A stretch of DNA of 64,000 nucleotides from an uncultured delta proteobacterium (GCA_963716725.1 CAVQUB010000021.1:64001-128000), one strand, 5' to 3'; positions 14,214 through 33,129 are shown, counted from the stretch's first letter. The notes: a model not told the origin generated them from the letters alone. Program-made: numbers and translations.

Positions 14214-14846
14214 TCACCGCTGCTTCATGCGTGCCGTCGTGACCCACTCGTCCCAGGTGCTCGACCAGCCGTCGTAGTGGATCAAATATTTGTCCGCTTT
14301 GACGCTGAGCACGCTGGCGGGCCACCACTTGCCTTTCCAGAGGACCGCGACCTTCGCGCCGGCTGCGTAGGCGGCCTTCTTTGGCGCCGGCGGCCCCGCG
14401 TCGATCGGCGGCGCGAGCATCACCCCCGACGCGGTGGGCATGAGGTTGGGCACAGGCCTCGCGGCCACACGGGTCGGCGAGGCACTGCCGGCGGGAGCGC
14501 CGGTGGCAACGAGCTCCGGGGTCGGAGGCGTCAGCTCTGGACCGACCAACGGCTTGGACGAGTCGATGTAGTACGGCGCGAAGCTGGTCTCGGTCAGCCA
14601 CGCTGCCAGCATCGGCTTCCACTCGGCTGCGTCGAGTCCGGTGTCCCGCAGCGACGCCTCGACCGCGAGGCTGGCGACCTTGGCGCACGAGTGCTCGCCC
14701 GGTCGCACCCCGGCTTCTTCGGTGAGCTTGCGGCAGGTCGCGAACACCTTCTCGTACTTGCCGAGCAGGCGCTGGGCCCGCATCTTGGGCGTGCACCCGC
14801 CCGCGAAGAGCGCGACCACGAGCAGGAGCCCTCCGATTCGCCGCAT
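14214..14846 (-). CDS. lipoprotein with C-terminal Tudor-knot/Agenet-like domain
   Basis: Lipobox AGGC; C-terminus KVAVLWKGKWWPASVLSVKADKYLIHYDGWSSTWDEWV. Confidence 0.75.
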   Translation of the reverse strand: MRRIGGLLLVVALFAGGCTPKMRAQRLLGKYEKVFATCRKLTEEAGVRPGEHSCAKVASLAVEASLRDTGLDAAEWKPMLAAWLTETSFAPYYIDSSKPLVGPELTPPTPELVATGAPAGSASPTRVAARPVPNLMPTASGVMLAPPIDAGPPAPKKAAYAAGAKVAVLWKGKWWPASVLSVKADKYLIHYDGWSSTWDEWVTTARMKQR

Positions 14847-14936
14847 CTCGTATCAGCGTGGAGCCGACCCGCGAGCTTCGTCAAGCGACCGCGGCTGTAA
14901 GGCCGCTGTGTTGCCCGGCGTTGACGGGGCACCGCC

Positions 14937-15333: not shown

Positions 15334-15451
15334 CTGCAAGGGCGGAGGGCAACTGCGCAGCGCGCAATCCGGCGCCCCTGCTCACGCGTGACGCAGCGCG
15401 AGATGCGCTTTGTCAGGTGCCTTCGGGCGTTCCCGTGGCAGGCTCGGGACC

Positions 15452-16759
15452 ATGACGACCGACCTCACCGAGTTCGTCCGTCCCGCCGCCGGCGTGACGC
15501 GCGTTTCCAGCATGGCTTCCGGCATCGTCGGATCGGAGATCTTGAAGATCGCCGCAGACATCCGCGCGATGGTCCAGAAGGGGCAGAAGATCTGCAATTT
15601 CACCGTCGGCGACTTCGACCCGCGGGAGTTTCCCATCCCCGACGCGCTCCAGAAAGGCATCGTCGAGGCCTACGAGGCGCACGAGACCAACTACCCGCCG
15701 TCCAATGGCATGCCGGAGCTGCGAAGCGCGGTGCAGCGCTTCTACGCGCGTGAGCTCGGGCTCGAAGTGCCGATCGAGTCCATGCTTGATCTGCGGCGGC
15801 GCGCGGCCCGTCATCTACGGCGTGTATCGCACGCTCGTCGATCCCGGCGACGTGGTCGTGTTCCCCGCTGCCGAGCTGGAACAACAACCACTACGTGCAG
15901 ATGACGGGCGCCCGCGGGGTCGCCGTCAAGTGCGGCGCCGAGACGCGCTTCCTGCCGACGCGCGAGAGCATGCTCGTCGAGCCTGGGCGAGGCGCGTCTC
16001 GTGTGTCTCAACTCGCCGCTCAATCCGACCGGCACGGCCATGAGCCGCGACATGCTCGCCGGCATCTCCGAGGCCATCTTGAGCGAGAACGAGAAGCGGG
16101 AGAAGACCGGAAAACGCCCGGTGTTCCTGATGTACGATCAGATCTACTGGATGCTCACCGCGGACGGGGCCAGCCACGTGACTCCGCCGGGCATCGACCC
16201 CGAGATGGCGCGCTACACCATCTTCGTGGACGGGATCAGCAAGGCGTTCGCCGCCACGGGAGTGCGGGTCGGCTGGGCCGTGGGCCCGGTCGACGTCATC
16301 GACCGCATGAGCTCGATCTTGGGTCACGTCGGGGCGTGGGCGCCCCGCGCCGAGCAGGTCGCGACCGCAAAGTTTCTCGACGACACGGCGAGCATCAAGA
16401 CCTACGTCCGCGAGATCAAGCAGGGCATCGTGGGTCGCCTGAACGCTCTGCACGAAGGCTTCCAGGCGTTCAAGGCCCAGGGACTTCCGGTCGACAGCTT
16501 GTCTCCCGAAGGCGCGATCTACCTGACGGTGCGCGTCGCGCCCTTCGGCAAGAAGACCCCGGACGGCACGCTGCTCTCCAGCAATGAAGACATCCGCAAG
16601 CTGCTGCTCGATCGAGCGGGAGTGGGCGTCGTTCCCTTCCAGGCCTTTGGCTACCCGGACGACGACGGCTGGTTCCGCCTGAGCGTGGGCGCGGTGTCCC
16701 TGCGCGAGGTCCAGGACGCGCTGCCACGCATCGGCGAGGCGCTGCGCGCCCTGGCCTGA
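15452..16759 (+). CDS. class I/II (aspartate) aminotransferase, with three apparent +1 frameshifts
   Basis: NFTVGD, YPPSNGMPELR, LNSPLNPTG, YDQIY, GISKAFAATGVRVGW (PLP Lys), FRLS. Extra bases near 15787, 15865 and 15976 split it across ORFs. Confidence 0.85.
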
Positions 16760-17948: not shown

Positions 17949-19304
17949 ATGTCGTCCGGCGAGGGCAATCGCGCGGTGCTCATCGCGGTGAGGCACCCCG
18001 ACGTCAGCGAGGCCGAGCTCGACGCGAGCCTCGCCGAGCTGGGGCGCCTGGTGAAGACGCTGGGCTACCGCGTGGTGGATTGGGTGACACAGCCCCGCGC
18101 CACCCTCGCCCCGGGAGCCGTGCTTGGGGAAGGAAAGCTAGCGGAGCTGGCCGAGCTCACCGGCGGCAGCGGGAAGTCGGGCACGCCGCTTCCGCTCCGG
18201 AAGTTGAGCAAGGCTCGGCGCCGACGCGAGCCCGAAGCAGACGCCAGCGGGCCGGAAGAACCCGCCGAGGACAGCGAGCCGAAGATCGCCCTGGTCGCGG
18301 TCGATCACGACATTTCACCCAGTCAGGCTCGCAACCTCGAGCGTGCGACGGGATCGGCGGTTTTGGACCGAACCGGGGTCATCATCGAGATTTTTCATCG
18401 CCACGCCAAGAGCCGCGAAGCGCGGTTGCAAGTCGAGATCGCGCGACTCGCCTACACCGCCCCGCGCCTCCGGGAATCGCCCGCCGGAAGAGAGCGACAA
18501 GCCGGTCGCGGCGCGGGTGAAGCCGCGCTCGAGCTCGATCGACGCAAGATCCGCGACCGCATCGCCGAGCTCAGAGCCGAGCTTGCGGCTATCCAGCGCG
18601 ACCACGGCGTGCGGCGCGCCCACCGGCGCGATGCTCGTCGTGTGGCCTTGGTGGGGTACACCAATGCCGGCAAGAGTTCCCTCATGCGTGCGCTGACTGC
18701 CAGTCAGGTCCACGTAGAAGACAAGCTCTTCGCCACCCTCGACACCACGGTGCGTGCGCTCTCGCCCGAGACGAAACCCCGCATCTTGGTCAGCGACACG
18801 GTCGGCTTCATCAAGAAGCTGCCCCACGACTTGGTCGCGAGCTTCAAATCCACGCTCGACGAAGCCCTCGAAGCGTCGCTGTTGCTCCACGTGGTGGACG
18901 CCAGCGATCCGAGCTGGGAGAGCCAGCTCGAGGTCACCCGGGCGGTGTTGGCCGAGATCGGCGCCGAGGGGCTGCCGATGCGCGTGGTGATGAACAAGAT
19001 CGACAAGCTGGGCGCCGAGGAACTCGAGGAGCTGCGGCGCCAATGGCCGAATGCTTGGTTCTCGTCAGCGCACGATCCGGCCGACGTGATCCGGGTGCGC
19101 GACGCGTTGGTAGCCTTCTTCGAAGAGGACTACCTCGAGAGCGAACTCTTCGTGCCCTGGACGGCCCAGCGACTGGTCGCCGAAATGCACGAGGTCGGTC
19201 GCGTGCTCGAGGAACGCTACGGCGAAGATGGAGTGACCGTTCGCCTGCTCGCCGACGCTCCAACGCTCGCACGGCTGCGCTCGGCGCTCGCGGATGGATC
19301 GTAG
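17949..19304 (+). CDS. hflX: GTPase HflX
   Basis: QARNLE, DRTGVIIEIF, EARLQVE, GYTNAGKSS, LFATLDTT, DTVGFI and NKID motifs. Confidence 0.95.
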   Translation: MSSGEGNRAVLIAVRHPDVSEAELDASLAELGRLVKTLGYRVVDWVTQPRATLAPGAVLGEGKLAELAELTGGSGKSGTPLPLRKLSKARRRREPEADASGPEEPAEDSEPKIALVAVDHDISPSQARNLERATGSAVLDRTGVIIEIFHRHAKSREARLQVEIARLAYTAPRLRESPAGRERQAGRGAGEAALELDRRKIRDRIAELRAELAAIQRDHGVRRAHRRDARRVALVGYTNAGKSSLMRALTASQVHVEDKLFATLDTTVRALSPETKPRILVSDTVGFIKKLPHDLVASFKSTLDEALEASLLLHVVDASDPSWESQLEVTRAVLAEIGAEGLPMRVVMNKIDKLGAEELEELRRQWPNAWFSSAHDPADVIRVRDALVAFFEEDYLESELFVPWTAQRLVAEMHEVGRVLEERYGEDGVTVRLLADAPTLARLRSALADGS

Positions 19305-19331
19305 CCCCGGGCGGCGAGGGCGACGAGACGC

Positions 19332-19529
19332 TCAGCCTTGGTGACGAAGTAGGGTCGTCACCTTGCCGAGCTCGCCCTCCCAGGTCTCGGTGTGGCGCGA
19401 ATCGCTGTGCGACCCGTCGTGTCCGGCGGGCGCGTCGCAAACCAGCTCTGCGCGGCGCTGCGCCACGTTGGTGGACGTGCCGGTGACGCTCCTCGTGACG
19501 ATGAGAACTGCTTTGGCTCCGCAAGTCAT
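19332..19529 (-). CDS. putative small metal-binding protein (65 aa)
   Basis: MTCGAK...LVCDAPAGHDGSH...W; C...C-x5-H-x3-H ligand pattern; fits between hflX and the kinase. Confidence 0.5.
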   Translation of the reverse strand: MTCGAKAVLIVTRSVTGTSTNVAQRRAELVCDAPAGHDGSHSDSRHTETWEGELGKVTTLLRHQG

Positions 19530-19679
19530 CTGTGGACGCCATGGCTTACCCCCGCTCGCTGCTTGGGAGAAGCCCCCAGCGGTTTCCAGGGCCATTACCC
19601 GCGGAGACCACCGCCACCTGGCCCGATCTGGATCCGGCGTGATAGCCTTTGTCGACCTAAGTCCTCTCTTACTTGCGCC

Positions 19680-21050
19680 ATGAAAGAGACGGAAACCCTC
19701 CCCCCCGGAAAGCTCATCGCGGGTCGTTACCGAGTCCAAGAACGCCTCGGCGAAGGCGGGATGGGCTCGGTGTACGCGGTGGAGCACGTGCACACCGGAC
19801 AAGAACTCGCGCTCAAGGTCCTGAACGCGAAGATGGTTCAAGATCAGATCGCGCTGGAGCGATTTCGCCGGGAGTCGCGCGCCCCCGCGCGCATCCAGAG
19901 CGATCACGTCGTGCAGGTGACCGACGCGGACGTCGCGCCCGAGCTCGGCGGCGCGCCCTTCTTGATCATGGAGCGGCTGCGGGGTCAGAGCTTCGACCAG
20001 CTCTTGGCGGGGGCGGTGATGTCACCCGCCGCGACCCTCCTCTACCTGGGACAAGTGGCGCGCGCCTTGGACAAGGCCCACGGCCTGGGCATCATCCATC
20101 GAGACATCAAGCCCGAGAACATCTTCCTGACGAAGCGCGAGGACGGAACTCCGCTGGTGAAGCTGCTGGATTTCGGCATCGCAAAGCTCACCGAGGGCAC
20201 GGACATGTCCTCCAAGACCGCGACGGGCGCGATCTTCGGCACACCCCTGTACATGGCGCCGGAGCAAATCCTCGGGCAGCCCGATCGCATCTGCGCCCAG
20301 ACCGACATCTGGGCGTTGGGCGTCTTGGCCCATCGCATGTTGACCGGCGCCGAACCCTGGACCGCGCAGACCCTGCCGCATCTGGTGGCTCAGATCGCCT
20401 ACGAGCAACTGCCGACCCCGAGCCAGCGCGGCTCCGATCTCGGTCCCGGTTTCGACGCTTGGTTCGCCCGCGTCTGCGCGCGGCAACTGGAAGACCGCTA
20501 CGCCTCGGCCTCCGAAGCCGTCTCGGCCCTCGCGACTGCCCTCGGCGTCGAGGCCTCGGCGCTCAGCGTGAGCGGTGAGGTCAGGTCGAGCCACCACGTC
20601 ATCCGCTCGAACCGCGACGTCGCGCTGGCCGAAACCGCGGTGGCCCCCACCGACACCGGCATCGGCTCGGACACGCTGGCCGCGCAGGTCACGCTGCGCA
20701 AAGGCGGAGGCCGCGTGGTGATGGTCGCGGCCGTTTCGGGCATCGCGGGGCTGCTCGGGGTCGGTTTGTGGCTCGCGCTGCGCTCGCCGGTCCCGGCCAG
20801 CGAGCCCGCGGGCACGGCGGCCGCCGCGATCTCGACCGCTCGGTCGGATCCGACCGCGCCGACCACACCCAGCGGGCCTCCCAGTGTCGAGGTCGCCATC
20901 ACGCCGCCGACGTCGGCGTCCGCCGCAGGCTCCGAGGCTCCTCGAGTCCTGCCGCTTCCGAAACCGGTCGGCAAGCCGCCGAGCCAAGGCAAGACGCCTC
21001 CGAAACCGAGCGGCGCTAACGTCGACCCGCTGGACATGGGAAGGAAATGA
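19680..21050 (+). CDS. membrane-anchored serine/threonine protein kinase
   Basis: LGEGGMGSVY, ALK, HRDIKPEN, DFG, GTPLYMAPE; one TM helix, then a Pro-rich tail ending VDPLDMGRK; ATGA overlap with the next gene. Confidence 0.95.
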   Translation: MKETETLPPGKLIAGRYRVQERLGEGGMGSVYAVEHVHTGQELALKVLNAKMVQDQIALERFRRESRAPARIQSDHVVQVTDADVAPELGGAPFLIMERLRGQSFDQLLAGAVMSPAATLLYLGQVARALDKAHGLGIIHRDIKPENIFLTKREDGTPLVKLLDFGIAKLTEGTDMSSKTATGAIFGTPLYMAPEQILGQPDRICAQTDIWALGVLAHRMLTGAEPWTAQTLPHLVAQIAYEQLPTPSQRGSDLGPGFDAWFARVCARQLEDRYASASEAVSALATALGVEASALSVSGEVRSSHHVIRSNRDVALAETAVAPTDTGIGSDTLAAQVTLRKGGGRVVMVAAVSGIAGLLGVGLWLALRSPVPASEPAGTAAAAISTARSDPTAPTTPSGPPSVEVAITPPTSASAAGSEAPRVLPLPKPVGKPPSQGKTPPKPSGANVDPLDMGRK

Positions 21051-22075
21051 GACTCACTCCTCGCCGGATCCGCTCCGCGCTATTCATGGTTGCCATCGCG
21101 CTCGCATCGAGCCACTCCCCTGCGCAAGGCGACGCGGCCGCGGCAGAGCAGCTGTACAAGCAAGGCAAGGCCCTCGCGAAGAAGGGCGACTATGCCGCCG
21201 CGTGCCCCAAGTTCGAGGCGAGCTACGGTCTCGACCGAGGCCTGGGTGCGCTGCTCAACTTGGCCGACTGTCACGAGCGACTGGGCAAGCTAGCCTCCGC
21301 GTGGGCGGAGTGGAACGAGGCCCATGACCTGGCCAAGCGGTCCAAGGACGACCGCGCGAAGTACGCCGGCGATCGCCGCGACAAGATCGAGCCGAAGCTG
21401 CCCAAGCTGCAGATCAACGTGAAGAACCCCGTGGACTCGCTGGCCGTCTACCGCGGCGACGCCCAGATCGAAGCTGCGACCTACGGTGCCGCGCTGGCGG
21501 TGGATCCCGGCGAGGTGCTCGTCAGCGTGCGGCGCGGGGATCAGACGCTCAAGAGCGAGACCGTCACCGCGAAAGAAGCCCAGACCGCCACCGTCGAGCT
21601 CGACCTCGCCGCTATCGACGCGGAGTTCCCGGCGCCCAAGCCCGCGCCGACCGCGACCGCGACCGCGACCGCGACGGCGCCACCGCCGCCCGCTCCCCGC
21701 GCGCCACCGCCTTCGAGCTCGCAGAAGACCATCGGCTACGTCGTCGGCGGCGTGGGCGTGGCGGCGCTGGTCACCGCAGGAGTGCTCGAGGGCCTGGCCC
21801 TGAGCAAGAAGTCCAAGGCCGACGAGCCCGATCAGTGCGTCAACGGGTACTGCAGCCCCAACGGGTTTCAGACCATCGAAGACGCGAAGCGCCTCGCCAC
21901 CATCGGCCAGTGGGTGGGCATTGGCGGCGTTCTGTTCACGGCGGTCGGAGCGACGCTCGTGCTCACGGCGCCGTCGTCCAGGGAGACCGCCCGGGCGAAG
22001 CGCCCGGCACGCGTCGGCGCCGGCGGATGGATCGCGCCTTCGGGGGGCGGCATCACCATCAACGGGTCGTTGTGA
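21047..22075 (+). CDS. TPR + PEGA-like domain protein with C-terminal hydrophobic hairpin
   Basis: Signal peptide; AEQLYKQGKAL...ACPKFEASY...ALLNLADCHERLG TPR; VDPGEV beta domain; two hydrophobic segments; ends GGGITINGSL. Confidence 0.85.
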   Translation: MRLTPRRIRSALFMVAIALASSHSPAQGDAAAAEQLYKQGKALAKKGDYAAACPKFEASYGLDRGLGALLNLADCHERLGKLASAWAEWNEAHDLAKRSKDDRAKYAGDRRDKIEPKLPKLQINVKNPVDSLAVYRGDAQIEAATYGAALAVDPGEVLVSVRRGDQTLKSETVTAKEAQTATVELDLAAIDAEFPAPKPAPTATATATATAPPPPAPRAPPPSSSQKTIGYVVGGVGVAALVTAGVLEGLALSKKSKADEPDQCVNGYCSPNGFQTIEDAKRLATIGQWVGIGGVLFTAVGATLVLTAPSSRETARAKRPARVGAGGWIAPSGGGITINGSL

Positions 22076-22443
22076 TGGCGCCGCGACACTTGGTCGCGCT
22101 GGGATTGCTCGCGGTCGTTGCAGCGCCGAGCTGCGTGAGCACGCTGGGGCTCAACGAGGAGTACCGTTCGGCGGTCGAGCAACTGTGCGCTTGCCCGAGC
22201 ATATCTCCCCCGTTTGCAACCACGAGAGCGTGCGTCGCCGAGCTCGAGTTTCGGCTCGAGCGCGCCAGCGCGTCCGGGCGCTCCGCGTGGATGAAGAACT
22301 TCACGGAGAAATGCGACACCTGCCCCGCCGATCCCATTCAGGAGTGCGTTCGGGTGACTCCGACTTGCGAGGGTACGGGTGAGTGCCCAAGCGCTGGGTG
22401 CCAGCTCTGCTGCCAGGAGTTGCCGGAGAAGAAGTGCTTCTGA
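22075..22443 (+). CDS. short Cys-rich lipoprotein
   Basis: TGATG overlap; lipobox APSC; shares the L..ASASGRSAW segment with the two downstream paralogues. Confidence 0.8.
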   Translation: MAPRHLVALGLLAVVAAPSCVSTLGLNEEYRSAVEQLCACPSISPPFATTRACVAELEFRLERASASGRSAWMKNFTEKCDTCPADPIQECVRVTPTCEGTGECPSAGCQLCCQELPEKKCF

Positions 22444-23634
22444 GGCGCGCCCCCCTCGCCGCGGCGCTCGGCCTGCTGATCGCCATCCCGAGCTGCAGCG
22501 GGCTGCTCGAGCTGGACGGCTACTCCGACGCCACCGGCGAGCTCTGCGATTCTGTTTCGCACCTGCTACCAATTCGACTGCGCGGCGCAGGTCGGCAATG
22601 CGCTCGGCAACGCCGACGCCAGCGGGCGAGCGTCGTGGCTCGCGGCGCTCTCGGACCAGGGCTGCCTCGAGCAGTGCTCGGCGGCGAGGCGCTGCCTGAA
22701 CATCGAACCCGTGTGCCTGCCAGAGAAGGCCAGCTGCACGCGCACCGAGCAGTGCTGCGGTTTCTTGAACGGCGCCACCGAATGCGGCGCGCCGACCGGG
22801 GGGGATAGCGTCTGCTGTCGCGCCCAAGGCGCGACCTGCGCGAGCAACGACGATTGCTGCGACGGAAACTGTGATCGCTCCACCAGCACTTGCGGCGGCA
22901 CCGTGTGCGCCAGTGTGGGCGAGGTCTGCAAGAACGCCTTCGATTGCTGCTCGGGAAAGTGCGGCGCCGACCATCGATGCGAGCCGAACCTGTGCAGCCA
23001 AGAGGGCTTTGCCTGCGCCGCACAGGCCGAATGCTGCGTCGGGCTCTCCTGCACCGCGGGCGTGTGCGGCAAGGGCATCGTGTGCCGCGCCGACGGGGAA
23101 GAATGCGAGCCAACTGGCAATCCCCCGTGTTGTGACCAGCTGCCCTGTGTCCCGATCGGCAATTCCAAGGGACTTTGTCGGAGCTGCCTGCAAGGCAACG
23201 AGCCCTGCGACCCGGACGACCCCAAGTGTTGCGAGGGCCAGTATTGCGATCCATACAAGAAGCTCTGCGGGAACAGGTGCGTCGGCCCGGACCAACCATG
23301 CGAGAACAACTTCGACTGCTGCAGCACGCAGTGCGACCGTGCCGCCGGCTCGGCGCAGGGAACCTGCGCGTGTTCGAAGGGTTCTTGCGTCGACGACACC
23401 GACTGCTGCGACAAGACGGCGGGCCAGTGCGTCGGCGGCAGCTGCCAGCTCGACTGCAAGGTGGGCACGTCGTGTCACAACGCCTGCGTGGCCGGACCGG
23501 CGATGAAGAAGGACTGCTCCCCCTGCGTGGCGACGGTCTGCGCCGACGACCCGTTTTGTTGCTGCCAGCTCTGGGACGACCTGTGCGTCGACCGCGCTTT
23601 CAAGACCTGCACCGCAGCCTGCAAGGACCCCTGA
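22434..23634 (+). CDS. Cys-rich lipoprotein with 8 knottin-like repeats, copy 1 (apparent +1 frameshift at 22551)
   Basis: GTG at 22434, lipobox IPSC. Removing the T at 22551 gives ELCDLFRTCYQFDC...CLEQCSAARRCLNIEPVC, collinear with 25180..26361. Confidence 0.85.
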
Positions 23635-23644
23635 CGGAGAGCCC

Positions 23645-25141
23645 ATGATGAAACTGCGAGCACTGAGCGTGATCGGTCTCATGGCCTGCGCCGCCGGTTG
23701 CGGCGCCTCCTCGTCGGAGGACGCGGCGGGAGGTCTCGGCGGCGCGGGCGGCGGCCCCGGGTTGACGAACTTCGGAGTCGAGCCGGCCGAAGACGGTCCG
23801 GAGGCGGACTCGGCGAGCGACTCTTCGAAACTCGGCCCGGCCTCCTGTGTCAGCGACCTGCCGCTCGAGCAGGTCGAGCTTTCGCTCGGTGACATTCAAG
23901 GCGCGGCCAGCGCGGCTCGCGCCCGCGAGGTCTTGCTGCGCAGCCCGGCCGAGTCCCCGTGGCCGAGCCGGATCCGCGTCAGCGATTTCCTGAACTACTA
24001 CCGGGTGAGCGTGGACGCACCCGCCACCGAGGCATCCATCACGCTGCAGGCGAGGCCCCGGATGCTCTACAGCGACGTGGGCCAGAGCACCCAAGCCACC
24101 GGCCAGTGGGACGTGGTCGTCGCGCTGCACGCGCCGGTGGCGAACGTGCGCAAGCAGCACGCGTTGATCGCGATCGTCGATACTACGCCGAGCATGGCGG
24201 GGGTCGGCATTGGCAGGGCCAAGGCCGTGCTCAGCGCGCTGATCAACAGCGCCGCGGCGGGCGACCACCTCGTCGTCCTGACCACCGACCCCGAGCAGGG
24301 CAACCCCATCGAGCTGGATCTCGTGGGAGCTGCGGAGCGCGAACAAGCCGCCCGCGCCGTGGGCGAGCTGGAGCTGGGGGGCGAGAGCGCGATCACCGAG
24401 GCCATCGCCCGGGCCTACGACTTAGCCGAGCTCAAGCAGAGTCTCGGCATGCCGGCGCGGGTGATGCTGGTGAGCGACGGAGGTGGCGACGTCGCTGGCC
24501 TGGACGAAGGCCGATTGACGACCGGATCACAGCCCGGCGAAAACCCCATCGCGCTCACCGCCGTCGGCACTGGCTCGTCGAGCTGGTATCGATCCACGTT
24601 GTTGCGCCGGGCCGCTGAGCTGGGTCGCGGACCCTACGTCTACGTGGATTCGGAGGACGAGGCCGAGTCGTTGTTTGGATCTCGGCTCCCCGAAATGACC
24701 GAGATCGCCCTCGACGGGCTCTCAATCCAGCTCGAGGTTTCTTCCTTCTACACGGTCCACGAGGCCGGCGAAGGCATCCCCTCGGGCAGCTCGCCCCCGC
24801 AGTACCTGGCGCCCGGCGCCTCGACCACGAAGCTCTTCCGCCTCGTTCCCTGCAAGTTTGGCGCTACCCCCAGCGACACTACGATCGCGGTGACGGCCAC
24901 GCATTCCGGCGGCACGGTCGGCTGGACGGGTGACCTGCTGGCGTTGAAGAAGCAGCCGGCCGCCGCAATGCTCGACAAAGCCCTCGCCATCGACGCCTAC
25001 GCATCAGCCCTGCGCGCTCGAGAGGCTACCCGGCTCGCGGCCGCACAAACCCTGATTGCGGCGGCGCTGAAGGCCGGCCCGGATCCAGATCTCTTGGAGA
25101 TGAAGGAGCTCGTCGCACGTCATCCGCTCCTGAATCCCTGA
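23645..25141 (+). CDS. VWA-domain lipoprotein (YfbK-like), copy 1
   Basis: Lipobox AAGC; IRVSDFLNYY; IVDTTPSM (MIDAS-like), VMLVSDG, LTAVGTG, AELGRGPYVYVD. Confidence 0.85.
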   Translation: MMKLRALSVIGLMACAAGCGASSSEDAAGGLGGAGGGPGLTNFGVEPAEDGPEADSASDSSKLGPASCVSDLPLEQVELSLGDIQGAASAARAREVLLRSPAESPWPSRIRVSDFLNYYRVSVDAPATEASITLQARPRMLYSDVGQSTQATGQWDVVVALHAPVANVRKQHALIAIVDTTPSMAGVGIGRAKAVLSALINSAAAGDHLVVLTTDPEQGNPIELDLVGAAEREQAARAVGELELGGESAITEAIARAYDLAELKQSLGMPARVMLVSDGGGDVAGLDEGRLTTGSQPGENPIALTAVGTGSSSWYRSTLLRRAAELGRGPYVYVDSEDEAESLFGSRLPEMTEIALDGLSIQLEVSSFYTVHEAGEGIPSGSSPPQYLAPGASTTKLFRLVPCKFGATPSDTTIAVTATHSGGTVGWTGDLLALKKQPAAAMLDKALAIDAYASALRAREATRLAAAQTLIAAALKAGPDPDLLEMKELVARHPLLNP

Positions 25142-25179
25142 TCTCGTCGAGCCGCCAACTACGCTAGGTTGGTCCAGAA

Positions 25180-26361
25180 ATGAAGCTTCGATTCGCGTTC
25201 ACCACCGCCGGTCTCCTGGCGGTCGTCGGCTGCGCATCCCTGTTCGGCGTCGATGGCTACAGCGACTCGACCGAAGAACTCTGTGAGCTCCTCGAGCGCT
25301 GCTACCAAGTCAAAGATTGCCGCGACCGGCTCGGTCCTCGACTCGATGCGGCGTCGGCTTCGGAGCGTAGCGACTGGCTGAGCGCCATCAGCGACCAGGC
25401 CTGCCTCGAGCAGTGCAGCGCGGCGCGACGCTGCCTCAACATTGCTCCCGTCTGCGGGGCTCAGGCGTCGCAGTGCTCGAGCCCGCAAGAGTGTTGCGGC
25501 TTCCTGAACGGAGTGCGGTCCTGCGGACAGGACGGGACCTGCTGCCTCGCGAAGGGCGCGGCGTGCGGGCCCGAGTCGCAGTGCTGCAACAACGATTGCA
25601 AGAACGGGTTTTGCGGCGGAGCGAAGTGCGCGGAGCCCGGAGCGCCCTGCCTCAACCCCTTCGAGTGCTGCACCAACATCTGCATCGCGGGAAAGTGCTC
25701 CGAAGGCATTTGCATCGAGCTCGGGGGCGGCTGCGAGGCGACCGAGGACTGCTGCGAGGGCAAGTGCCTCGGGGGCCGCTGCGGGTACGAGGAGTGTCGT
25801 GCGGAGAACGAGGCCTGCACGGACGGCGTTCAATGCTGCGACGGGCGGCCATGCGTCGAAATTCCCGCAAGCCCCGGGGTGAAGCTCTGCCAGGGCAGCA
25901 AGCCCTGCGCGCCCCTCGACTTTCCTTGCCAGGAGAACACCGACTGCTGCGTCGACGGGGACCAGCCGCTCGTCTGCGATCCCAAGGCCAAGCGCTGCGG
26001 CGAAGCCTGCCGAGCTCTGGGAATATCGTGTTCGACCCCCGGCGAGTGCTGCAGCAAGGTTTGTGAGAGCGGTATTTGCGGCTGCTCGAACGACGCTTGC
26101 ACTGGGTTGGGCGACTGCTGCGGCGAGGCCGTGTGCGTGGGCGGCGTGTGCGAGACCAACTGCGCCCCCGCTGTCTGTCACGACGAGTGCGTGCCCGGCG
26201 GACCGCTCTCGCCATCGTGCTCCAAGATCGGCCCTCCGGCAGTGGACGGCGCGTGCGTCCAGAAGGTGTGCGAGAAGGACGGATATTGTTGCTGCAAAGC
26301 CTGGGACGCCGCGTGCATTCAGGGCGCCCTGGATCTGTGCCCCAAGACAGTCTGCCAGTGA
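25180..26361 (+). CDS. Cys-rich lipoprotein with 8 knottin-like repeats, copy 2
   Basis: Lipobox VVGC; units such as CLAKGAACGPESQCCNNDCKNGFC; C-terminal CHDEC...CV.KVC..D.YCCC..WD..C module. Confidence 0.88.
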   Translation: MKLRFAFTTAGLLAVVGCASLFGVDGYSDSTEELCELLERCYQVKDCRDRLGPRLDAASASERSDWLSAISDQACLEQCSAARRCLNIAPVCGAQASQCSSPQECCGFLNGVRSCGQDGTCCLAKGAACGPESQCCNNDCKNGFCGGAKCAEPGAPCLNPFECCTNICIAGKCSEGICIELGGGCEATEDCCEGKCLGGRCGYEECRAENEACTDGVQCCDGRPCVEIPASPGVKLCQGSKPCAPLDFPCQENTDCCVDGDQPLVCDPKAKRCGEACRALGISCSTPGECCSKVCESGICGCSNDACTGLGDCCGEAVCVGGVCETNCAPAVCHDECVPGGPLSPSCSKIGPPAVDGACVQKVCEKDGYCCCKAWDAACIQGALDLCPKTVCQ

Positions 26362-26449
26362 TCCGTGCCACAGTGTGCCAGGGCCGGGGCGGGATCCTGC
26401 GGGATCCCCGGGGGCCGGCCAGGCACGCTGCGTGCTAGGCTTTGGGGTC

Positions 26450-27976
26450 ATGAACCGCTGGTGCGCGTTGGCTCTGGTCCCGTTGGCGGTTGCGTGTGGG
26501 TCGAACGCGTCCGACGGGGCGCTGGATGAGGGCGGCAGCGGAGGGGGCATGAACATGGGGGGCGGAGGCGGGCTGAGCGGAGGCCCCCCCATCAGCGGCA
26601 GCGGAGGCTCCGGCCTCACCGGATCCGAAGCCGCCACGCTCGAGCCCAATCTGGCATCGAAGAGTGGCGGGGCGCAGAATGCGCCCGGCTGCCCTGGGTT
26701 CACCGGCGCTACCCAGCTCGACCTAACGGTCGCTGACGCCCGCGGGATGGCTAGCGGACCGCGTGTGCGCGAGCTCGTGGCCGCCGGGCAGGCCGGGCCG
26801 GCGGCGGTCCGAACCAGTGAAGTGAACAACTACTACCGCTTGAGCTGGCCGAACACGCCGGAGCCCGGCGGCTTCCTTTCGCGAGTCGGCGTCCGCCCGC
26901 GCAAGGTCGGCACCACCGTGTTGCCAGGCCACTACGATCTGCTGGTTGCGGTCCGTGCTGACCCAAACGTGCATCTTCGCCAGAAGGTGGAGATGGTCGT
27001 GGTGGTCGACACCTCGGCTTGGATGACCGAGGAGGGCTTGGCCCGGGGCCGTAAGGTGGTGCGAGCCCTCGCGAACTCGATGCTGCCGGGCGACTACTTT
27101 GCGTTGAAGTCCCTGGCCGGGACGGTGCTATTCGAGTCCGTGCTGCTCGCGCCGAGTGCCGAGCTCGCCGACGTCGAGGCCAAGCTCGTCCGGGAAGACG
27201 GCGGCTCGGTTCGAAGCTCGGTGGAAGGCGCCTTGGCCAAGCTCCAGGAGACCCCGCCGGAGCCTGCGGTCTGGAAGCGCGTCGTGTTTGTGGGTAACGG
27301 CGCGACTGACGACGGCCCCAATCCGGCTATCATCCAGAAGGCCGCGACAAGTGCACACCAGGTGTTCGTCTCGGCCGTCGGCGTGGGACAGGACGGCTAC
27401 AACGGCGGCATGCTCGCCGGACTCGCGCGGGCTGGCCGGGGCGCGCACTTGTACATCGACAACCTCGATGAGCCGGCCAAGCTCATCGAGGCACGCTTTG
27501 TCGAGCTCTTCGGCATAGCCGCCGACGACGTGCGCTTCGCGATCAGCTTGCCCTGGTTCATGCAGTCGCTCGACCCGGTGCCGCCTCCGGACTCCAGCGC
27601 CCCAGCGCCGCCGCAGTACCTCTCCCCGGGCGGCACGATGCTGCATGTCTTCCGGCTGTTCGTCTGCGAGGCCGCGCTGACCTCGGCAACAAACGATGTC
27701 ATCGGCATCTCCGTCGACTTCAGGCTGCCGGGGGAGACGACTTCGCAATCACTCCCGCTGGCGATGAAGCCCGTGGCCAAGGCGCTGCTTCAGCCCGTGC
27801 CCGAGCTCGACGAGCTCGAGGCCATCGACGCCTGGGTGTCGGCCTTCCGGTCGCCGAACTCGACTCGCTACGCACTCGCGAAGCAGCTGCTCGACTCGAC
27901 CGACTTGCAGGGCAAAGCCCCCTTCAGCGACCTGCTCACCATCCTCGACAAGCACCCGAACGCCCCCAAGAACTGA
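26450..27976 (+). CDS. VWA-domain lipoprotein (YfbK-like), copy 2
   Basis: Lipobox AVAC; VRTSEVNNYY; VVDTSAWM; VSAVGVG, LARAGRGAHLYID; PPQYLxPG shared with copy 1. Confidence 0.85.
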   Translation: MNRWCALALVPLAVACGSNASDGALDEGGSGGGMNMGGGGGLSGGPPISGSGGSGLTGSEAATLEPNLASKSGGAQNAPGCPGFTGATQLDLTVADARGMASGPRVRELVAAGQAGPAAVRTSEVNNYYRLSWPNTPEPGGFLSRVGVRPRKVGTTVLPGHYDLLVAVRADPNVHLRQKVEMVVVVDTSAWMTEEGLARGRKVVRALANSMLPGDYFALKSLAGTVLFESVLLAPSAELADVEAKLVREDGGSVRSSVEGALAKLQETPPEPAVWKRVVFVGNGATDDGPNPAIIQKAATSAHQVFVSAVGVGQDGYNGGMLAGLARAGRGAHLYIDNLDEPAKLIEARFVELFGIAADDVRFAISLPWFMQSLDPVPPPDSSAPAPPQYLSPGGTMLHVFRLFVCEAALTSATNDVIGISVDFRLPGETTSQSLPLAMKPVAKALLQPVPELDELEAIDAWVSAFRSPNSTRYALAKQLLDSTDLQGKAPFSDLLTILDKHPNAPKN

Positions 27977-27980
27977 GCGT

Positions 27981-28817
27981 TCAGCACTCACAACCGCCGA
28001 AGACGCAGAGCAGGCTCAGCGTCAGAGTGAAGTCGCCAGCGTCATTGGCGGTCTTGCCGTCGACGACCACCACGTACCATCCGTCTTCCGGCGCCACGAA
28101 GCTGGTGCTCCAGGTGCCCGCGCCGGTGTTCCCGCACAAGAGCTTCTTGCCGCACCCCTGATCGGTGCAGCCCGTGCCGGAGTAGATCTTGAAGACCCGA
28201 TCCCACGTCGGAGCGCTCGAGCACTTCGCGCCCTGGGTGAGCAGCACGTCGAGCTTCTCGAATTTCTTCAGGTACAGGCGCCAGGCTCGATCACGCCCGT
28301 CGTCTTTGCAGCTTGTCGCGTCGTAGCCGCTCAGGTCGTTCGCTACGCTGCAGGTGCTCGCCGTGACCTGAAAGCCGCCGGCCTTGGCAGCGGTGAGGCG
28401 CCCCACCACGCGAGCTCCGGAGCAGCCTGCGCCGCTCTCGCTCCCGTCCCCGCAGCCGAGCACGTTGCACGACGTGCCCCCTCCGCTGCCTCCGCTGCCT
28501 CCGCTGCCTCCGCTGCCTCCGCTGCCGCTGCCGCCGCCGACGCCGCTCCCACCCGTGCCTCCGCCCGTGACCGCACCGCCCACCCCGCCGCCGCCCGTCG
28601 GCAACGTCCCGCCGGTGCCGGCGCTGCCGCCCGCACCCGAGCCCGCGCTACCTCCCGCGGCCCCGGTACCGGCGCTGCCGCCGCCGCTCGCTCCGCCGGA
28701 TGACGCTCCCCCGGAGCCCCCGGGCGCGCCGCCGCCGCCCTCGCCTTCGCCGACGCCTTCGGCCGTTGCGCACGACAGCGCAAACCAAATCAGGGACAAA
28801 TGGTGAAAGCGCGACAA
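27981..28817 (-). CDS. Gly-rich lipoprotein with C-terminal PPC-like beta-sandwich
   Basis: Lipobox ALSC; long Gly/Ser linker; GWYVVVVDG...GDFTLTL ending. Confidence 0.75.
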   Translation of the reverse strand: MSRFHHLSLIWFALSCATAEGVGEGEGGGGAPGGSGGASSGGASGGGSAGTGAAGGSAGSGAGGSAGTGGTLPTGGGGVGGAVTGGGTGGSGVGGGSGSGGSGGSGGSGGSGGGTSCNVLGCGDGSESGAGCSGARVVGRLTAAKAGGFQVTASTCSVANDLSGYDATSCKDDGRDRAWRLYLKKFEKLDVLLTQGAKCSSAPTWDRVFKIYSGTGCTDQGCGKKLLCGNTGAGTWSTSFVAPEDGWYVVVVDGKTANDAGDFTLTLSLLCVFGGCEC

Positions 28818-28849
28818 GTCGCGGAACTATAGCGCGCTCGCGCAGCCGG

Positions 28850-29431
28850 GTGAGTCGTGATCCGACGTATGCTGACCAGGTGGACGCCGAGGGCTTTCGA
28901 CCGCCGCCGCCAGTCCCCGTCGCCGCCACGCCACCGGTGCCGAGTAGTGGACTCAAGCTGCTCGGGATCGCGCAGTGTGCGCTCGGGGCCTTTGGCATCG
29001 CAACGGCGCCGCTCGCGCTCATCACTCGAGCATTGGTCCAAGATCCCGGCTCCCGTCAGGTCCAAGATCTGCTCTGGGATGGCTGGCTGGGAGCTTGGAC
29101 CTACGCCTCGCTCACGCTCGGCACCGCGCTGGCGGTCCTGCTGATCGTCGCCGGCGTCGCCGTCACGCGCGGTCGCGCGCTGGGGCGCAAGCTGTCGGTC
29201 GCGCACGCGCTCGCGACCCTCGCGCTGGTCGTCGTGGGCCAGATCGTCACCGCGCTGCTGCTCTATCCTGCTTTGCTGGAGCTCGCGGCGAGCGGAGGCG
29301 CCGCCGAGCGGGGCGGCGCGGTCGGCGGCATCGCCGGCGGTCTGCTCGGTAGCGCCGTCGCGCTGGTGCTGCCCGCCATCGAGCTGGTGGTGATGTCACG
29401 GCCGCAGGTCAAAGAGCAGCTCTCGCAATGA
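28850..29431 (+). CDS. hypothetical integral membrane protein (about 4 TM)
   Basis: Four hydrophobic segments; ends VMSRPQVKEQL. Confidence 0.7.
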   Translation: MSRDPTYADQVDAEGFRPPPPVPVAATPPVPSSGLKLLGIAQCALGAFGIATAPLALITRALVQDPGSRQVQDLLWDGWLGAWTYASLTLGTALAVLLIVAGVAVTRGRALGRKLSVAHALATLALVVVGQIVTALLLYPALLELAASGGAAERGGAVGGIAGGLLGSAVALVLPAIELVVMSRPQVKEQLSQ

Positions 29432-29579: not shown

Positions 29580-31919
29580 TCAGCGCTTCTTCGCGGTGAG
29601 CTTGCCTTGCAGCTCGAGCGCGGTCGCTCTGAAGCGCGCAGCCTCCGTCGGGCAGCCCGCGGAGCAGGGATGCTTCTTCTTCGGCCCGCATCCGCGCTTG
29701 GCGGCAGTCGAGAGCCCGATCAGCGCCGATACCGCGCGGGCGTCTCCGGTCTCGAGCGCCCTGCGAAGCAGCGGTACGCGCTCCGCGCAGGTGCGTGCGG
29801 TGCGCAGCTCGAAGGCAACGGCGAGTGCGGGAGAAAACTGCTTGCGCACGGCTGCGTCGTCGAGGCGCTCACGCGCGGCCTGCCGCAACGGGATGCTGGT
29901 CAGCATCAGGTCGTAGAGCATGTCGGGGCCAAGCGACCCCATCCGCGTACCCATCAGGTCGAGTGCGCGAGTGGAGGCCTCCCCGGGCGACAGCGCCGCT
30001 TTGACCACGAGCGCCCCGACGGTCTTGTCCCGGCCACGCTCGGGGTCGATGCGCAATAGCGTGTCGAGCTCACTCATCGCCCGCGGGAGCCCCTCCGCGG
30101 TGGCGCCCAGGGCGATGACCAGTGGCTCGATCACCGCCGGATCGCCGGGAAAACGCTTGGACAGCTCGAGCAGACCCTCGACGCCGCGGGCCGAGGCCGC
30201 GCGCACGTCGTCAGCGGAGGCCTGCGGCCCGGGCGCGATGCCCGGCGAGGGTGACGGAAGCATTGCCAAAGGCGCGGCCGGCGGATCCGGGTCGCCGGCG
30301 GCGGTGGCGGTCGGCACGACGCTCGGCTCGGCCGAGGGCACTGCCGCGGCAAGCGGCGGCGGCGCGACGCCGCGGGCGCGAGCGCGCTGTCCCAAGTGCA
30401 GGCAGGCGATGGACACCGCGATCGCAGCCACCGCGAGCACGGGGCCGGCGAACAGCCTGCCGAAGCGGCCGATGTCGGACTCGAGGATGCGCCGTCGCAG
30501 AAAGATCGTCGTGCCTGCGGTCAACGCGATCAACACGTGGATGGGGGCAAACCCGGGCCAGCCGGAGTAGCCCGGTCCGGAGGCGCCAACATGCTGTGCC
30601 ACGGCGTCGGCGCTGCGCCCGAAAAGCACCACGATCCCGTAGCTGGCAAGCGCTCCGACGATGGGCCCGCGCAGTCGCGGCAAGAACTCCAGCATCTTGA
30701 CGCTGTTGTTCCAGAACCGACGCCGGAACCAGCGCACCAGGAGGGCGCCGGGCGTGAGCAGCGTTCCGCAAACGACCGCAAGCACCAGCCAGAACTCGGA
30801 GGCCGACAGCGCTCTTCGGCCCAGCAGCGCGGGCAGACCCTGGAGCACGGTCATCACGCCGAGCACCGCTGTGAGCAAGGCGAGTGCTGCGACGAACAAG
30901 ACCTGCGGACGCGCCGAGCCGACCTCGTCATCGTCGGTCATCGAGTGGGTGGCCGAGAGCAACTGCCGACGCGGGGGCGGGTCCTGGCGCTCGGAGGCCT
31001 CGAAGTGCGAAAACGCCAGGTCGAGGTCATCGGCGCTCTGGAAGCGCTCGTCGGGGGCCGCCGCCATCGCCCGCTGAACCACCAACTCGAACTCCTCCGG
31101 GATCTCGGGGTTGATCGAGCGCGGCCTCACGGGCTCTCCGCTCATCACCGCGAGCATGGTCTGTTGCACGGACTCGCCCGCGAAGGGCGGGCGTCCCGTC
31201 AGGCAGGTGTAGACGATGGCGCCGACGCCGTAGATGTCAGCCCGCTGGTCCACACGCTCCCCACGCGCCTGCTCCGGCGCCATGAACGACGGTGTCCCCA
31301 TGGCGATACCCGTGCGCGTGACGCTGTTGCCGGTGGCTTCGATGAAGCGCGAGAGTCCAAAATCGAGGACCTTGACGCTGGGGTAGGGCGCCGGGCCGAT
31401 CAGATGCACGTTGTCGGGCTTGAGATCCCGATGGATCACGCCCTGGGCATGGGCCGCCGCCACGCCGCGCGCGACCCTGCTCCCGACGTAGGCCGCCTGA
31501 TCAGGGCTCAGCCAACCGCGCTCTTTGATGTAGTCGCCGAGGTTCTGCCCTTCGAGAAACTCCCACACGATGTAGGGCCGTCCGTCGTCGGCGTATCCAA
31601 AATCGTGCACCGCGACCACGTTGGGATGCGAGATGCTGGCGGCCGCGTCTGCCTCGCGCTGGAATCGTGCGCGAACCTCCGGGCTCCCTGCCATCTCCGC
31701 GCGGATCACCTTCACCGCGAAGCGCTTGCCCGCGATGCGGGTGTGGTGGGCCTCGTAGACCCTGCCCATGCCCCCCTCCCCGACGATGCGCACGAGCCGA
31801 TAGGTGCTCTGGAGGGTCACTCCGACGAGGTCGTCAGCGCCCTCGCCTTCGGGGACGACGCTCACGCCCGCGTGGGGTGACTCGTGGGCCGTGGGCCGAT
31901 CGTGGATGGAGTTGGCCAT
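29580..31919 (-). CDS. serine/threonine protein kinase with multi-TM region
   Basis: VGEGGMGRVY, AVK, HRDLKPDN, DFG, GTPSFMAPE; several TM segments, then a helical C-terminal domain. Confidence 0.93.
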   Translation of the reverse strand: MANSIHDRPTAHESPHAGVSVVPEGEGADDLVGVTLQSTYRLVRIVGEGGMGRVYEAHHTRIAGKRFAVKVIRAEMAGSPEVRARFQREADAAASISHPNVVAVHDFGYADDGRPYIVWEFLEGQNLGDYIKERGWLSPDQAAYVGSRVARGVAAAHAQGVIHRDLKPDNVHLIGPAPYPSVKVLDFGLSRFIEATGNSVTRTGIAMGTPSFMAPEQARGERVDQRADIYGVGAIVYTCLTGRPPFAGESVQQTMLAVMSGEPVRPRSINPEIPEEFELVVQRAMAAAPDERFQSADDLDLAFSHFEASERQDPPPRRQLLSATHSMTDDDEVGSARPQVLFVAALALLTAVLGVMTVLQGLPALLGRRALSASEFWLVLAVVCGTLLTPGALLVRWFRRRFWNNSVKMLEFLPRLRGPIVGALASYGIVVLFGRSADAVAQHVGASGPGYSGWPGFAPIHVLIALTAGTTIFLRRRILESDIGRFGRLFAGPVLAVAAIAVSIACLHLGQRARARGVAPPPLAAAVPSAEPSVVPTATAAGDPDPPAAPLAMLPSPSPGIAPGPQASADDVRAASARGVEGLLELSKRFPGDPAVIEPLVIALGATAEGLPRAMSELDTLLRIDPERGRDKTVGALVVKAALSPGEASTRALDLMGTRMGSLGPDMLYDLMLTSIPLRQAARERLDDAAVRKQFSPALAVAFELRTARTCAERVPLLRRALETGDARAVSALIGLSTAAKRGCGPKKKHPCSAGCPTEAARFRATALELQGKLTAKKR

Positions 31920-31989
31920 TCCCTGAAGCGGCGCCCATCCTAGCGCCCTTCGACCGGCAACTGGCGGCGCGTGACGAAATCCCGAAGGA

Positions 31990-33129
31990 TTAGGGGGCGA
32001 GTACCTGCTCACCCGTCCCGGTTCGCCAGACCGCGAGCCAAGTCGGCCCACCCACCGCCACCAGCGGCTGGGACGGCGACAGGACTACGGAGCGGTTCTT
32101 GGTGATCTCACGCACCCAATCCTCGGTCGCCGTCGCCCCGGCCAGAGGCAACTCCGTCGCCATCCGCTCCTTGCCGTCGGCGTCGAGGACCACGAGCTTC
32201 CACGAGCGCGAGCCCGCATCCGACGGCCCGGTCTCCAAGCGCAAGAGCGCGACCTCCGAGTCGTTCGTTGCGAGATCGAAGGTACCGGGGAGCTCCAGGG
32301 TCTTCTTGACCGCCAGGCTCGCGGCGGCGAGCTGCACCAGCTGGAGCTTCCCGTCGCTCCGGGCCAGCCAGATCTCGTCCAGACGGCGCGTGGTGAGCAC
32401 TCGCCACACCTCGCCTCCCTCCGGCAAGGCCATCGACCAGTGCTTGCCTCCAGGGAAGAACCGCTTGAGCACTGAGCCCGCGGTGTAGACGTACGAACCG
32501 TCTTTGAGCAGCGCGAAGCCCTTTTGATCGGCATCGGCCAGCGGGATCAAGTCGAGCGTGTCGAGCCGCCCCAGCTCCCCGAGTTCGTAGGGATAGAGGC
32601 TGGGGTCGATGCCGTGGTGGACCCAAATCTTCTTCTTGTCGCGCCGGTCGCCCAGCACCAGGGAGTCCGGGAACAGCGGCAGGCGCGAGTAGCGCTCGGC
32701 CTTCTTCGGATCCCGTGGCACGTACCAGACGTCGCTGGAGCCGGCCGCCAGCACGCTGCCATCGACCAGCGCGGCCACCCTTCGAGGCTGCGTGATCGGG
32801 AGACGCGTGATTTCCTTCATGTCCTTCGTGCCGCGGATCACCAGCTCGGAGTCGGTGAGCTGCGCCAGGCGTTCATTGCCGAAGGCGACTCTCTGAGCTG
32901 GCACGCGACGGGGGGCAACGTCGAGCCTCTCGCTGCGCATTTCGGCCACGACTCGCTTCGCCGCCGCGCTGGCGTCGAAGCCGCTGGCGTCCGGCGCCGC
33001 TGCCAGCGCAGCGTCGAGGTCTCTCGCAGGTGGACGCTCGGGCTCGCTGGGTCGGCTCGGCGGCGCAGGGGCGCGCTCTTCGCAGCCCGCGAGGGCCAAG
33101 ACAACAGCAAGAACCGCGAACGCTCGCAT
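31990..33129 (-). CDS. hypothetical lipoprotein (beta-rich)
   Basis: Lipobox LAGC; Pro linker; TATCCT 9 nt upstream of ATG. Confidence 0.75.
   Translation of the reverse strand: MRAFAVLAVVLALAGCEERAPAPPSRPSEPERPPARDLDAALAAAPDASGFDASAAAKRVVAEMRSERLDVAPRRVPAQRVAFGNERLAQLTDSELVIRGTKDMKEITRLPITQPRRVAALVDGSVLAAGSSDVWYVPRDPKKAERYSRLPLFPDSLVLGDRRDKKKIWVHHGIDPSLYPYELGELGRLDTLDLIPLADADQKGFALLKDGSYVYTAGSVLKRFFPGGKHWSMALPEGGEVWRVLTTRRLDEIWLARSDGKLQLVQLAAASLAVKKTLELPGTFDLATNDSEVALLRLETGPSDAGSRSWKLVVLDADGKERMATELPLAGATATEDWVREITKNRSVVLSPSQPLVAVGGPTWLAVWRTGTGEQVLAP

Follow-up and report, generated by a model that had tools for sequence, protein, structure and literature searches.

Organisation of the seven-gene cluster

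The window analysed here is a 64,000-nucleotide (nt) stretch of DNA from an uncultured delta proteobacterium (GCA_963716725.1, CAVQUB010000021.1:64001-128000; G+C ~68%), and all positions are counted from its first letter. It contains a cluster of seven genes on the + strand, here called G1 to G7. G1 (19680-21050) encodes a Hanks-type Ser/Thr kinase of 456 amino acids (aa), and G2 (21047-22075) encodes a TPR-like membrane protein of 342 aa, predicted to be exported. The five downstream genes encode putative lipoproteins: G3 (22075-22443) a short Cys-rich one of 122 aa with 13 Cys; G4 (22434-23634) a long Cys-rich one of ~399 aa on read-through, with a GTG start and a broken frame; G5 (23645-25141) a VWA-fold protein of 498 aa; G6 (25180-26361) a second long Cys-rich protein of 393 aa with 67 Cys; and G7 (26450-27976) a VWA-fold protein of 508 aa that is a paralogue of G5.

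The first four genes overlap. The G1 stop and the G2 start share the 4 nt ATGA (21047-21050), the G2 stop and the G3 start overlap by 1 nt in TGATG (22073-22077), and G3 and G4 overlap by 10 nt from 22434; the gaps after G4, G5, and G6 are 10, 38, and 88 nt. A preliminary description, made from the sequence alone, had reported seven co-oriented genes between 19680 and 27976 with these overlaps, and we found seven + strand open reading frames (ORFs) there, with the overlaps exact in the DNA. It had also described a two-gene module repeated in tandem, which the alignments bear out: G4 aligns to G6 over 373 aa with 40% identity (E 1e-95), and G5 to G7 over 519 aa with 27% (E 1.5e-41). The gene set, the overlaps, and the tandem duplication are thus real, with three corrections to the first reading, concerning the frame of G4, a PEGA domain in G2, and the score of the VWA domains.

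The cluster can be bounded because a gene for HflX lies on the same strand 376 nt upstream of G1 and the end of a convergent gene lies only 5 nt past G7. The intergenic gaps of the cluster contain no terminator-like site, and the three such sites on the + strand are inside G5, inside G7, and downstream of the cluster. A promoter scan gave no site upstream of G1 and two weak sites, both within genes, and no family was matched in an Rfam scan of positions 19000-29000. A literature search, with many subscription journals outside its reach, found no description of the seven-gene set, in agreement with the preliminary description, whose author knew of none. The seven genes are uncharacterised.

Knottin-like repeat lipoproteins

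The firmest new finding concerns G4 and G6: the family of knottin-like repeat lipoproteins to which they belong is large and has no name. G6 is built of a helical N-domain (residues ~19-95), 7-9 repeat units (~99-325), and a Cys-rich C-domain (~328-393). The repeats follow the framework C-x6-C-x5-CC-x3/4-C-x4-6-C, which in G6 takes the form C-x6-C-x5-CC-x3-C-x4-C. Seven units with the C-C-CC-C-C spacing were counted in G6 and seven in G4, compared with a mean of 0.44 in 2000 shuffles, none of which (0/2000) reached seven. By spacing, both proteins have the six-Cys framework of knottins.

The size of the family was measured by an exhaustive profile search, which found 2253 cluster representatives at E≤0.001, 621 at 1e-10, and 155 at 1e-30; a word-based search returned only 7 clusters, understating the family. 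Among 153 family proteins examined, the N-domain was present in 134, the C-domain in 131, and all three parts in 113. A loose pattern detected a lipobox-like motif in 103 of the 133 members of 300-520 aa. Conotoxin_I2 of Pfam matched 23 of 111 family members at E≤0.01, and fewer members matched other knottin toxin families or Dickkopf_N. The Cys-rich proteins of the window itself were below the Pfam cut-offs, and no model in the copies of Pfam and NCBIfam used names the family. A precomputed PF26780 label is attached to two metagenome proteins of the family (P0005 and P0006). The Pfam scan gave no such match, and no paper naming the label was found in the literature search; given this label, part of the family may already be catalogued.

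The fold of the repeats was examined using an AlphaFold2 (AF2) model of G6, which had a predicted local distance difference test score (pLDDT) of 65.8 overall, 70-89 in the repeats, and below 50 in the C-domain. The top Foldseek matches of this model were almost all knottins (omega-atracotoxin, SGTx1, hanatoxin, conotoxins, squash inhibitors, and DkTx), along with Dickkopf/colipase domains. Target-normalised TM-scores were 0.6-0.85 over 25-34 columns, the local match to 1hvw having a TM-score of 0.85 and a root-mean-square deviation of 0.8. None of the 62 matches reached E≤0.001, and no E-value was below 0.8. Sequence matches of G6 in the PDB were spider venom peptides (E 0.007-0.27). The "poly-knottin" label of the preliminary description is therefore supported in its knot-like spacing but not by a significant fold match; the repeats of G4 and G6 can be called knottin-like, and a knottin fold is suggested with modest confidence. 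Knottin peptides, DkTx, and Dickkopf/colipase domains have the C-x6-C-x5-CC-x3-C-x4-C framework and local fold matches in common with G6. Unlike the knottin peptides and DkTx, however, G4 and G6 carry 7-9 units per bacterial lipoprotein between conserved N- and C-domains, and the statistical support for the likeness is weak. The best ESM Atlas scores, 0.76 for G6 and 0.86 for G3, were taken as leads only; the nearest Atlas clusters are Cys-rich or small lipoproteins of Myxococcota, with that of G6 auto-named "Dickkopf N-terminal cysteine-rich". A tblastn search of G6 against a plasmid collection gave no match.

The short protein G3 consists of the N-domain shared with the long proteins and a short Cys-rich tail. 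It is 30% identical to G6 over 104 aa (E 5e-9) and matches the family profile at positions 5-109 (E 4e-11), and two G3 orthologues match the profile at 6e-9 and 1e-8 with filters off. Neither Pfam nor NCBIfam gave a match for G3. These alignments agree with the earlier proposals that the three Cys-rich lipoproteins have an N-terminal domain in common and that the 122-aa protein is nearly this domain alone. Lipoprotein signals were called by pattern reading, the pattern being a basic, hydrophobic start followed by a Cys no later than residue 20. The lipobox-like signals end in APSC (G3), IPSC (G4), LMAC or AAGC (G5), VVGC (G6), and AVAC (G7), and G3 to G7 are accordingly predicted to be exported lipoproteins.

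The C-domain of G4 and G6 has ~65 residues with a conserved D-P-x-C-C-C-x-x-W-D-x-x-C. It was found without the N-domain in 17 of the 153 proteins, giants with many copies among them. Proteins of 600-2400 aa (P0072, P0077, P0095, P0109, P0141, and P0149) contain 5-25 copies, and one such many-copy protein is full of Dictyostelium-type CTDC repeats. Because it occurs in multiple copies in these proteins, the C-domain is a mobile module that extends beyond the Cys-rich lipoprotein family.

A FastTree phylogeny of 119 rows, covering family proteins of 370-480 aa, placed the G4 and G6 clades within one starred set of 15 rows. An ancient split between G4 and G6 was rejected on this basis, and the tandem duplication is taken to be lineage-specific because the two clades share this one small set. 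The order of a short gene followed by a long one was found outside three close genomes (that of the window and the two related genomes described below) in one of the 153 proteins examined. In this protein, P0119 (524 aa, 31-40% identical), a single ORF encodes a short G3-like lipoprotein and, beyond another lipoprotein signal, a long member of the family. P0119 comes from a distant lineage; it may be a true fusion, or the gene call may have run through two neighbouring genes. It hints that this arrangement of a short gene before a long one arose earlier than the clade did.

G4, the earlier of the two long Cys-rich genes, does not read through in a single frame here. Its frame 0 covers 22434-22550 and the reading continues in the +1 frame at 22552-23634; the + strand has one surplus T in a TT at 22550-22551 relative to P0005, which is intact. 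Residues 19-39 of P0005 correspond to 22488-22550 with 100% identity, and residues 40-399 correspond to 22552-23631 with 99.7% identity (359/360). The G4 orthologues in the two related genomes are in one frame. The break may be an assembly error or a recent pseudogene. Assembly indel errors are a live explanation because a gene for a class I/II aminotransferase (15392-16759, + strand; Pfam 1e-23 on its C-terminal part) also changes frame. This gene has three frame changes within ~250 nt, using all three frames, and a stop at 15902-15904 in its start and end frame (that of 15392); it is itself either a pseudogene or the product of indel errors in the assembly. P0005 and the window G4 differ at 5 of the first 18 residues (22434-22487) and at 1 of the remaining 381, and the divergent stretch takes in the 10-nt overlap with G3.

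VWA lipoproteins, kinase, and TPR-like partner

G5 and G7 each have ~500 aa with 4 Cys, and both open with a lipobox and a Gly-rich linker. The G5 chain then continues with an N-terminal domain and a VWA domain (~172-335), after which come a beta-sandwich and, at the C-terminus, helices. The AF2 model of G5 (pLDDT 69.6; predicted TM-score, 0.67) gave 396 Foldseek matches at E≤0.001, the best being ArnB (8s05) of the ArnB/ArnA pair of Sulfolobus (8s05, 5a8j), itself a VWA domain with a beta-sandwich (4e-16), and another being the VWA domain 4fx5 (1e-14). Profile matches in the PDB were 8s05 (1e-5) and BatB (1.4e-4). The VWA fold of G5 is thus clear in the predicted structure. In G7 the domain is placed putatively by its 27% identity to G5, only G5 having a model; homologues of G7 form six clusters, four of which carry a precomputed PF00092. 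The VWA domains named in the preliminary description are therefore supported by fold and by these clusters, but in both proteins they fall below the Pfam gathering score, at 14.6-21.2 bits for PF00092/PF13519 (VWA_2 in G7, E 4.5e-4). A YfbK-like architecture, considered because of an N-Y-Y/F motif ahead of the VWA domain, was dropped as it had no Pfam support at E≤0.1.

The two VWA proteins differ in their metal ion-dependent adhesion sites (MIDAS), for which D-x-S-x-S ... T ... D was the criterion. In all three members of the G5 clade (3/3), D-T-T-P-S, T, and S-D-G retain MIDAS-like residues with one Ser-to-Thr change. G7 has a degenerate site, D-T-S-A-W ... G-N-G. The last Ser is lost in 7/7 members of its clade, with E for D in 5/7 and N for the last D in 5/7.

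We compared G5 and G7 with known VWA proteins. The preliminary description had drawn an analogy with CglB, which its published account (PMC9946355) describes as a VWA outer-membrane lipoprotein adhesin of Myxococcus xanthus gliding, with 416 aa, an N-terminal VWA domain, a beta-jellyroll, 17 Cys with disulfides that matter for the structure, and a canonical MIDAS (D56, S58, S60, T182, and D211). On this account the likeness extends only to being a myxobacterial VWA lipoprotein. G5 and G7 differ from CglB, as far as it is described there, in their ~500 aa, 4 Cys, and central VWA domain followed by a beta-sandwich and helices, and in their MIDAS, which is D-T-T-P-S in G5 and degenerate in G7. 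The window annotation shows no Glt genes near the cluster. Other Foldseek matches of G5 were Sec23/24 and, at 5e-10 to 2e-12, the Gram-positive pilus-tip adhesins SpaC and PitA together with ITIH1 (6m3y, 7w6b, and 6fpy). SpaC, PitA, and ITIH1 are VWA-centred multi-domain binding proteins and differ from G5 in having only 12-15% identity and other anchoring, not being lipoproteins.

In linking a VWA gene to a Hanks kinase, the cluster resembles ArnAB and the operons that combine vWA, Ser/Thr kinase, FHA, and PP2C genes, as the latter are presented in two papers (PMC7159879; PMC13622651); DRA0331-0334 of Deinococcus is an example (preprint; PMC7159879). According to the same sources, the vWA proteins of these operons act in the cytoplasm together with FHA, PP2C, and often MoxR; ArnAB likewise lacks export signals. 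In contrast, G5 and G7 have lipoprotein export signals. Pfam gave no match to FHA, PP2C, or AAA/MoxR in G1 to G7, so the cluster is not placed among these operons. The nearest FHA domain (6e-21) is in a zinc-ribbon protein encoded at 43800-44939 (+ strand), 16 kb from the cluster, which is the nearest possible phospho-Thr reader for the kinases of the window.

The first gene had been described as a Ser/Thr kinase, and G1 is indeed Hanks-type. It matches Pkinase (PF00069) at E 3.1e-42 with 145.2 bits against a cut-off of 31.7, and its catalytic motifs are kept (Gly loop at 24, ALK at 44-46, HRD at 140, and DFG at 164). A single transmembrane-like hydrophobic segment at residues 343-368 is followed by a tail of ~90 aa that is rich in Pro, Ala, Ser, and Thr, with 20 Pro among the last 96 residues of the protein; the kinase domain is predicted to be cytoplasmic and the tail outside. 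G1 is not a PknB/Stk1 PASTA kinase, since its NF033483 score of 229 bits lies below the cut-off of 450 and no PASTA domain was found. Two further Hanks kinases are encoded on the - strand of the window, at 8520-10196 and 29580-32084, with 26% and 33% identity to G1; the latter is kept downstream of the cluster in one of the related genomes (L002, 75%).

G2 begins with a signal-like N-terminus and a single TPR-like unit; next come a beta-rich middle of no known family and a Pro-rich linker. Two hydrophobic segments (228-253 and 288-310) enclose a conserved C-x4-C loop, and the conserved Cys residues are 53, 75, 264, and 269. The TPR reading of the preliminary description held in part: a TPR-like unit is present, aligned to a TPR region by hhalign at 78.6% and carrying a precomputed PF07719 in 8 of 120 listed homologues, but the match to TPR_16 (E 3e-4, 21.6 bits) misses the Pfam cut-off of 32.7. 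The PEGA domain that it had also assigned to G2 was not supported. Pfam gave no PEGA match (PF08308) at E≤0.1, none of the 120 listed homologues had a precomputed one, and in an hhalign comparison with the window's own TPR and PEGA protein only residues 6-95, the TPR part, aligned. A word-based search placed G2 homologues in 332 clusters, with identity down to 33%; where named, they come from Polyangiaceae and Minicystis metagenome-assembled genomes (MAGs), and several were called "TPR repeat protein" by JGI, the Joint Genome Institute. A distant paralogue of G2 is encoded at 41326-42237 (+ strand; hhalign 97%, E 2.5e-11) and has no central beta-rich domain. Its divergent neighbour is the TPR and PEGA protein (39564-41399, - strand; PEGA 2e-19).

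Conservation and possible function of the cluster

A genome scan detected the cluster in at least two other loci, in a Polyangiaceae MAG (L001) and a Myxococcales MAG (L002); among the 600 pattern matches listed, 4 encoded a relative, and these represent 2 distinct loci. Both have the complete set of seven, with gene order and all three overlaps unchanged, and both copies of the Cys-rich and VWA pair are kept in all three genomes. Identity to the window is 74-75% for G1, 80-81% for G2, 43-44% for G3, 70-72% for G4, 61-62% for G5, 62-65% for G6, and 55-57% for G7. G3 is thus the fastest-changing of the seven genes, and G3, G7, and G5/G6 diverge faster than G1 and G2 (74-81%) and the flanking genes (67-80%). 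The faster divergence of G3 and G5 to G7 fits what would be expected of exposed binding proteins. The gene set that the preliminary description put forward therefore recurs, but the two loci belong to close relatives with collinear flanks and so are not independent evidence of functional linkage.

Two further ORFs of the window were also noted. The convergent gene after G7 (27981-28817, - strand) encodes a Gly-rich protein with a lipobox and a C-terminal domain that contains Cys; it has no Pfam match, and over its C-terminal 162 residues the counterparts in L001 and L002 are 76-80% identical to it. An ORF of 211 aa at 14214-14849 (- strand) has a C-terminus that matches a eukaryote-type Tudor-knot/chromo-like domain (4e-8), which is unusual for a bacterium.

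Only the anatomy of the cluster is established: how the genes are ordered and overlap, which domains they encode, that the module is duplicated, and how large the Cys-rich family is. From it we infer co-transcription, pairing, docking, a link to the kinase, an outer-membrane or surface location, and a ligand. The interpretation that we tentatively favour is one envelope operon of a Polyangiaceae-type myxobacterium, in which each Cys-rich lipoprotein would pair with the VWA lipoprotein encoded next to it and report via G2 to the kinase. In favour of this interpretation, overlaps of 4, 1, and 10 nt join G1 to G4, the short gaps are free of terminator-like sites, and the same order and overlaps are found in L001 and L002. 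The kinase motifs are intact with one membrane segment, and the five downstream proteins have a lipobox-like signal. The Cys-rich and VWA genes were duplicated together with both copies kept, and the fold relatives of the VWA domain include pilus-tip adhesins and ITIH1. The MIDAS split between the G5 and G7 clades, the shared N-domain, the gene order in P0119, and the faster divergence of the lipoproteins point in the same direction.

In such an operon, G2 would be translationally coupled to G1, and G3 to G7 would be exported, lipidated, and heavily disulfide-bonded in the periplasm. G4 with G5 and G6 with G7 would form two paralogous envelope-anchored binding units, the G5 unit keeping a metal-site-like VWA face that the G7 unit would have lost. 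The N-domain adjoining the lipid anchor of G3, G4, and G6 could serve all three as a docking element, with the periplasmic TPR part of G2 as one conceivable partner, and G3, as this domain almost alone, might act as an adaptor or a competitor. The occupancy or state of the units would then pass through G2 to the kinase G1, which would phosphorylate cytoplasmic targets. For the kinase-coupled receptor/adhesin complex of the preliminary description, the identities of the components are supported and their co-occurrence is weakly supported.

Several points weigh against the favoured operon. The outside tail of G1 is of low complexity without a recognisable sensor domain, and the models of the knottin fold and the N-domain are of modest confidence. 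This strain may run on only one lipoprotein pair, G4 being frameshifted. The downstream genes of L001 and L002 are also collinear (67-80% identity), so the synteny is weak evidence that would be expected anyway, and further loci may exist beyond the at least two found among the matches listed. Neither a kinase nor the lipoprotein module neighbours the distant paralogue of G2 at 41326-42237, and the module lies next to only one of the three kinases in the window. The last two observations, the synteny from collinear close relatives only, and the breadth of the G2 family (332 clusters down to 33% identity) would suit two units that are merely adjacent, G1 and G2 being a generic myxobacterial kinase/TPR pair and G3 to G7 an independent lipoprotein module with a structural, adhesive, or other role. 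Against this stand the 1-nt G2/G3 and 10-nt G3/G4 overlaps, which bridge the two units and are kept in three genomes, and the lack of a terminator-like site in between. We regard simple adjacency as possible but somewhat doubtful.

The knottin-like features allow another explanation, in which the long Cys-rich lipoproteins would be tethered or vesicle-borne arrays that serve as protease inhibitors or blockers against prey or grazers, with the VWA proteins as carriers or holders and the kinase regulating expression only. Myxobacterial vesicles carry lipoproteins. The repeat spacing equals the inhibitor-cystine-knot framework, the structures nearest in fold are toxins of spiders and cone snails and trypsin inhibitors of squash, and the Conotoxin_I2 matches in 23/111 family members and the spider venom peptides in the PDB agree with this. 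However, 0/62 fold matches reached E≤0.001, the window proteins are below the Pfam cut-offs, and the conserved N- and C-domains with a lipid anchor fit a displayed scaffold equally well. This explanation is unlikely.

An envelope-stress role was also considered. In the NlpE-CpxA and RcsF-Rcs systems an envelope lipoprotein reports to an inner-membrane kinase, of the histidine-kinase type, and NlpE also senses disulfide formation. A sentinel of this kind, in which lipoproteins with ~33 disulfides each would alert the kinase via G2 when oxidative folding or lipoprotein sorting fails, would suit the extreme Cys content (67/393 in G6), the lipid anchors, the tight coupling with a kinase in the membrane and a TPR-like protein of the periplasm, and G3 as a minimal N-domain form, but it shares with NlpE and RcsF only the proposed layout and no sequence relation in Pfam or NCBIfam scans, leaves the VWA partners and the duplication without a role, and accords less well with the faster divergence of the family, which suits ligand-facing proteins better than a housekeeping sentinel, so that we consider it very improbable.

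The favoured envelope operon can also be taken further. The long Cys-rich proteins would then be the first bacterial "poly-knottins", widespread myxobacterial outer-membrane lipoproteins of ~8 true cystine-knot modules, each paired with a VWA protein, for the fast-evolving surface recognition of kin, prey, or matrix, read by a dedicated Ser/Thr kinase via a TPR co-receptor. In this full form we consider the proposal improbable.

In summary, this soil myxobacterium has a cluster in which genes for a Hanks kinase and a TPR-like protein stand beside those for five putative lipoproteins, three of them Cys-rich and two with a VWA fold. To our knowledge, myxobacteria have hundreds of Hanks kinases and almost none with a known input; if the favoured envelope operon is correct, it would give such a kinase a testable input from defined envelope lipoproteins. 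Were the repeats true cystine knots, the range of this fold would come to include bacterial tandem arrays. The duplication of the gene pair, in which one VWA protein keeps and the other loses the metal-site residues, offers a clean case for following the divergence of putative binding pairs.

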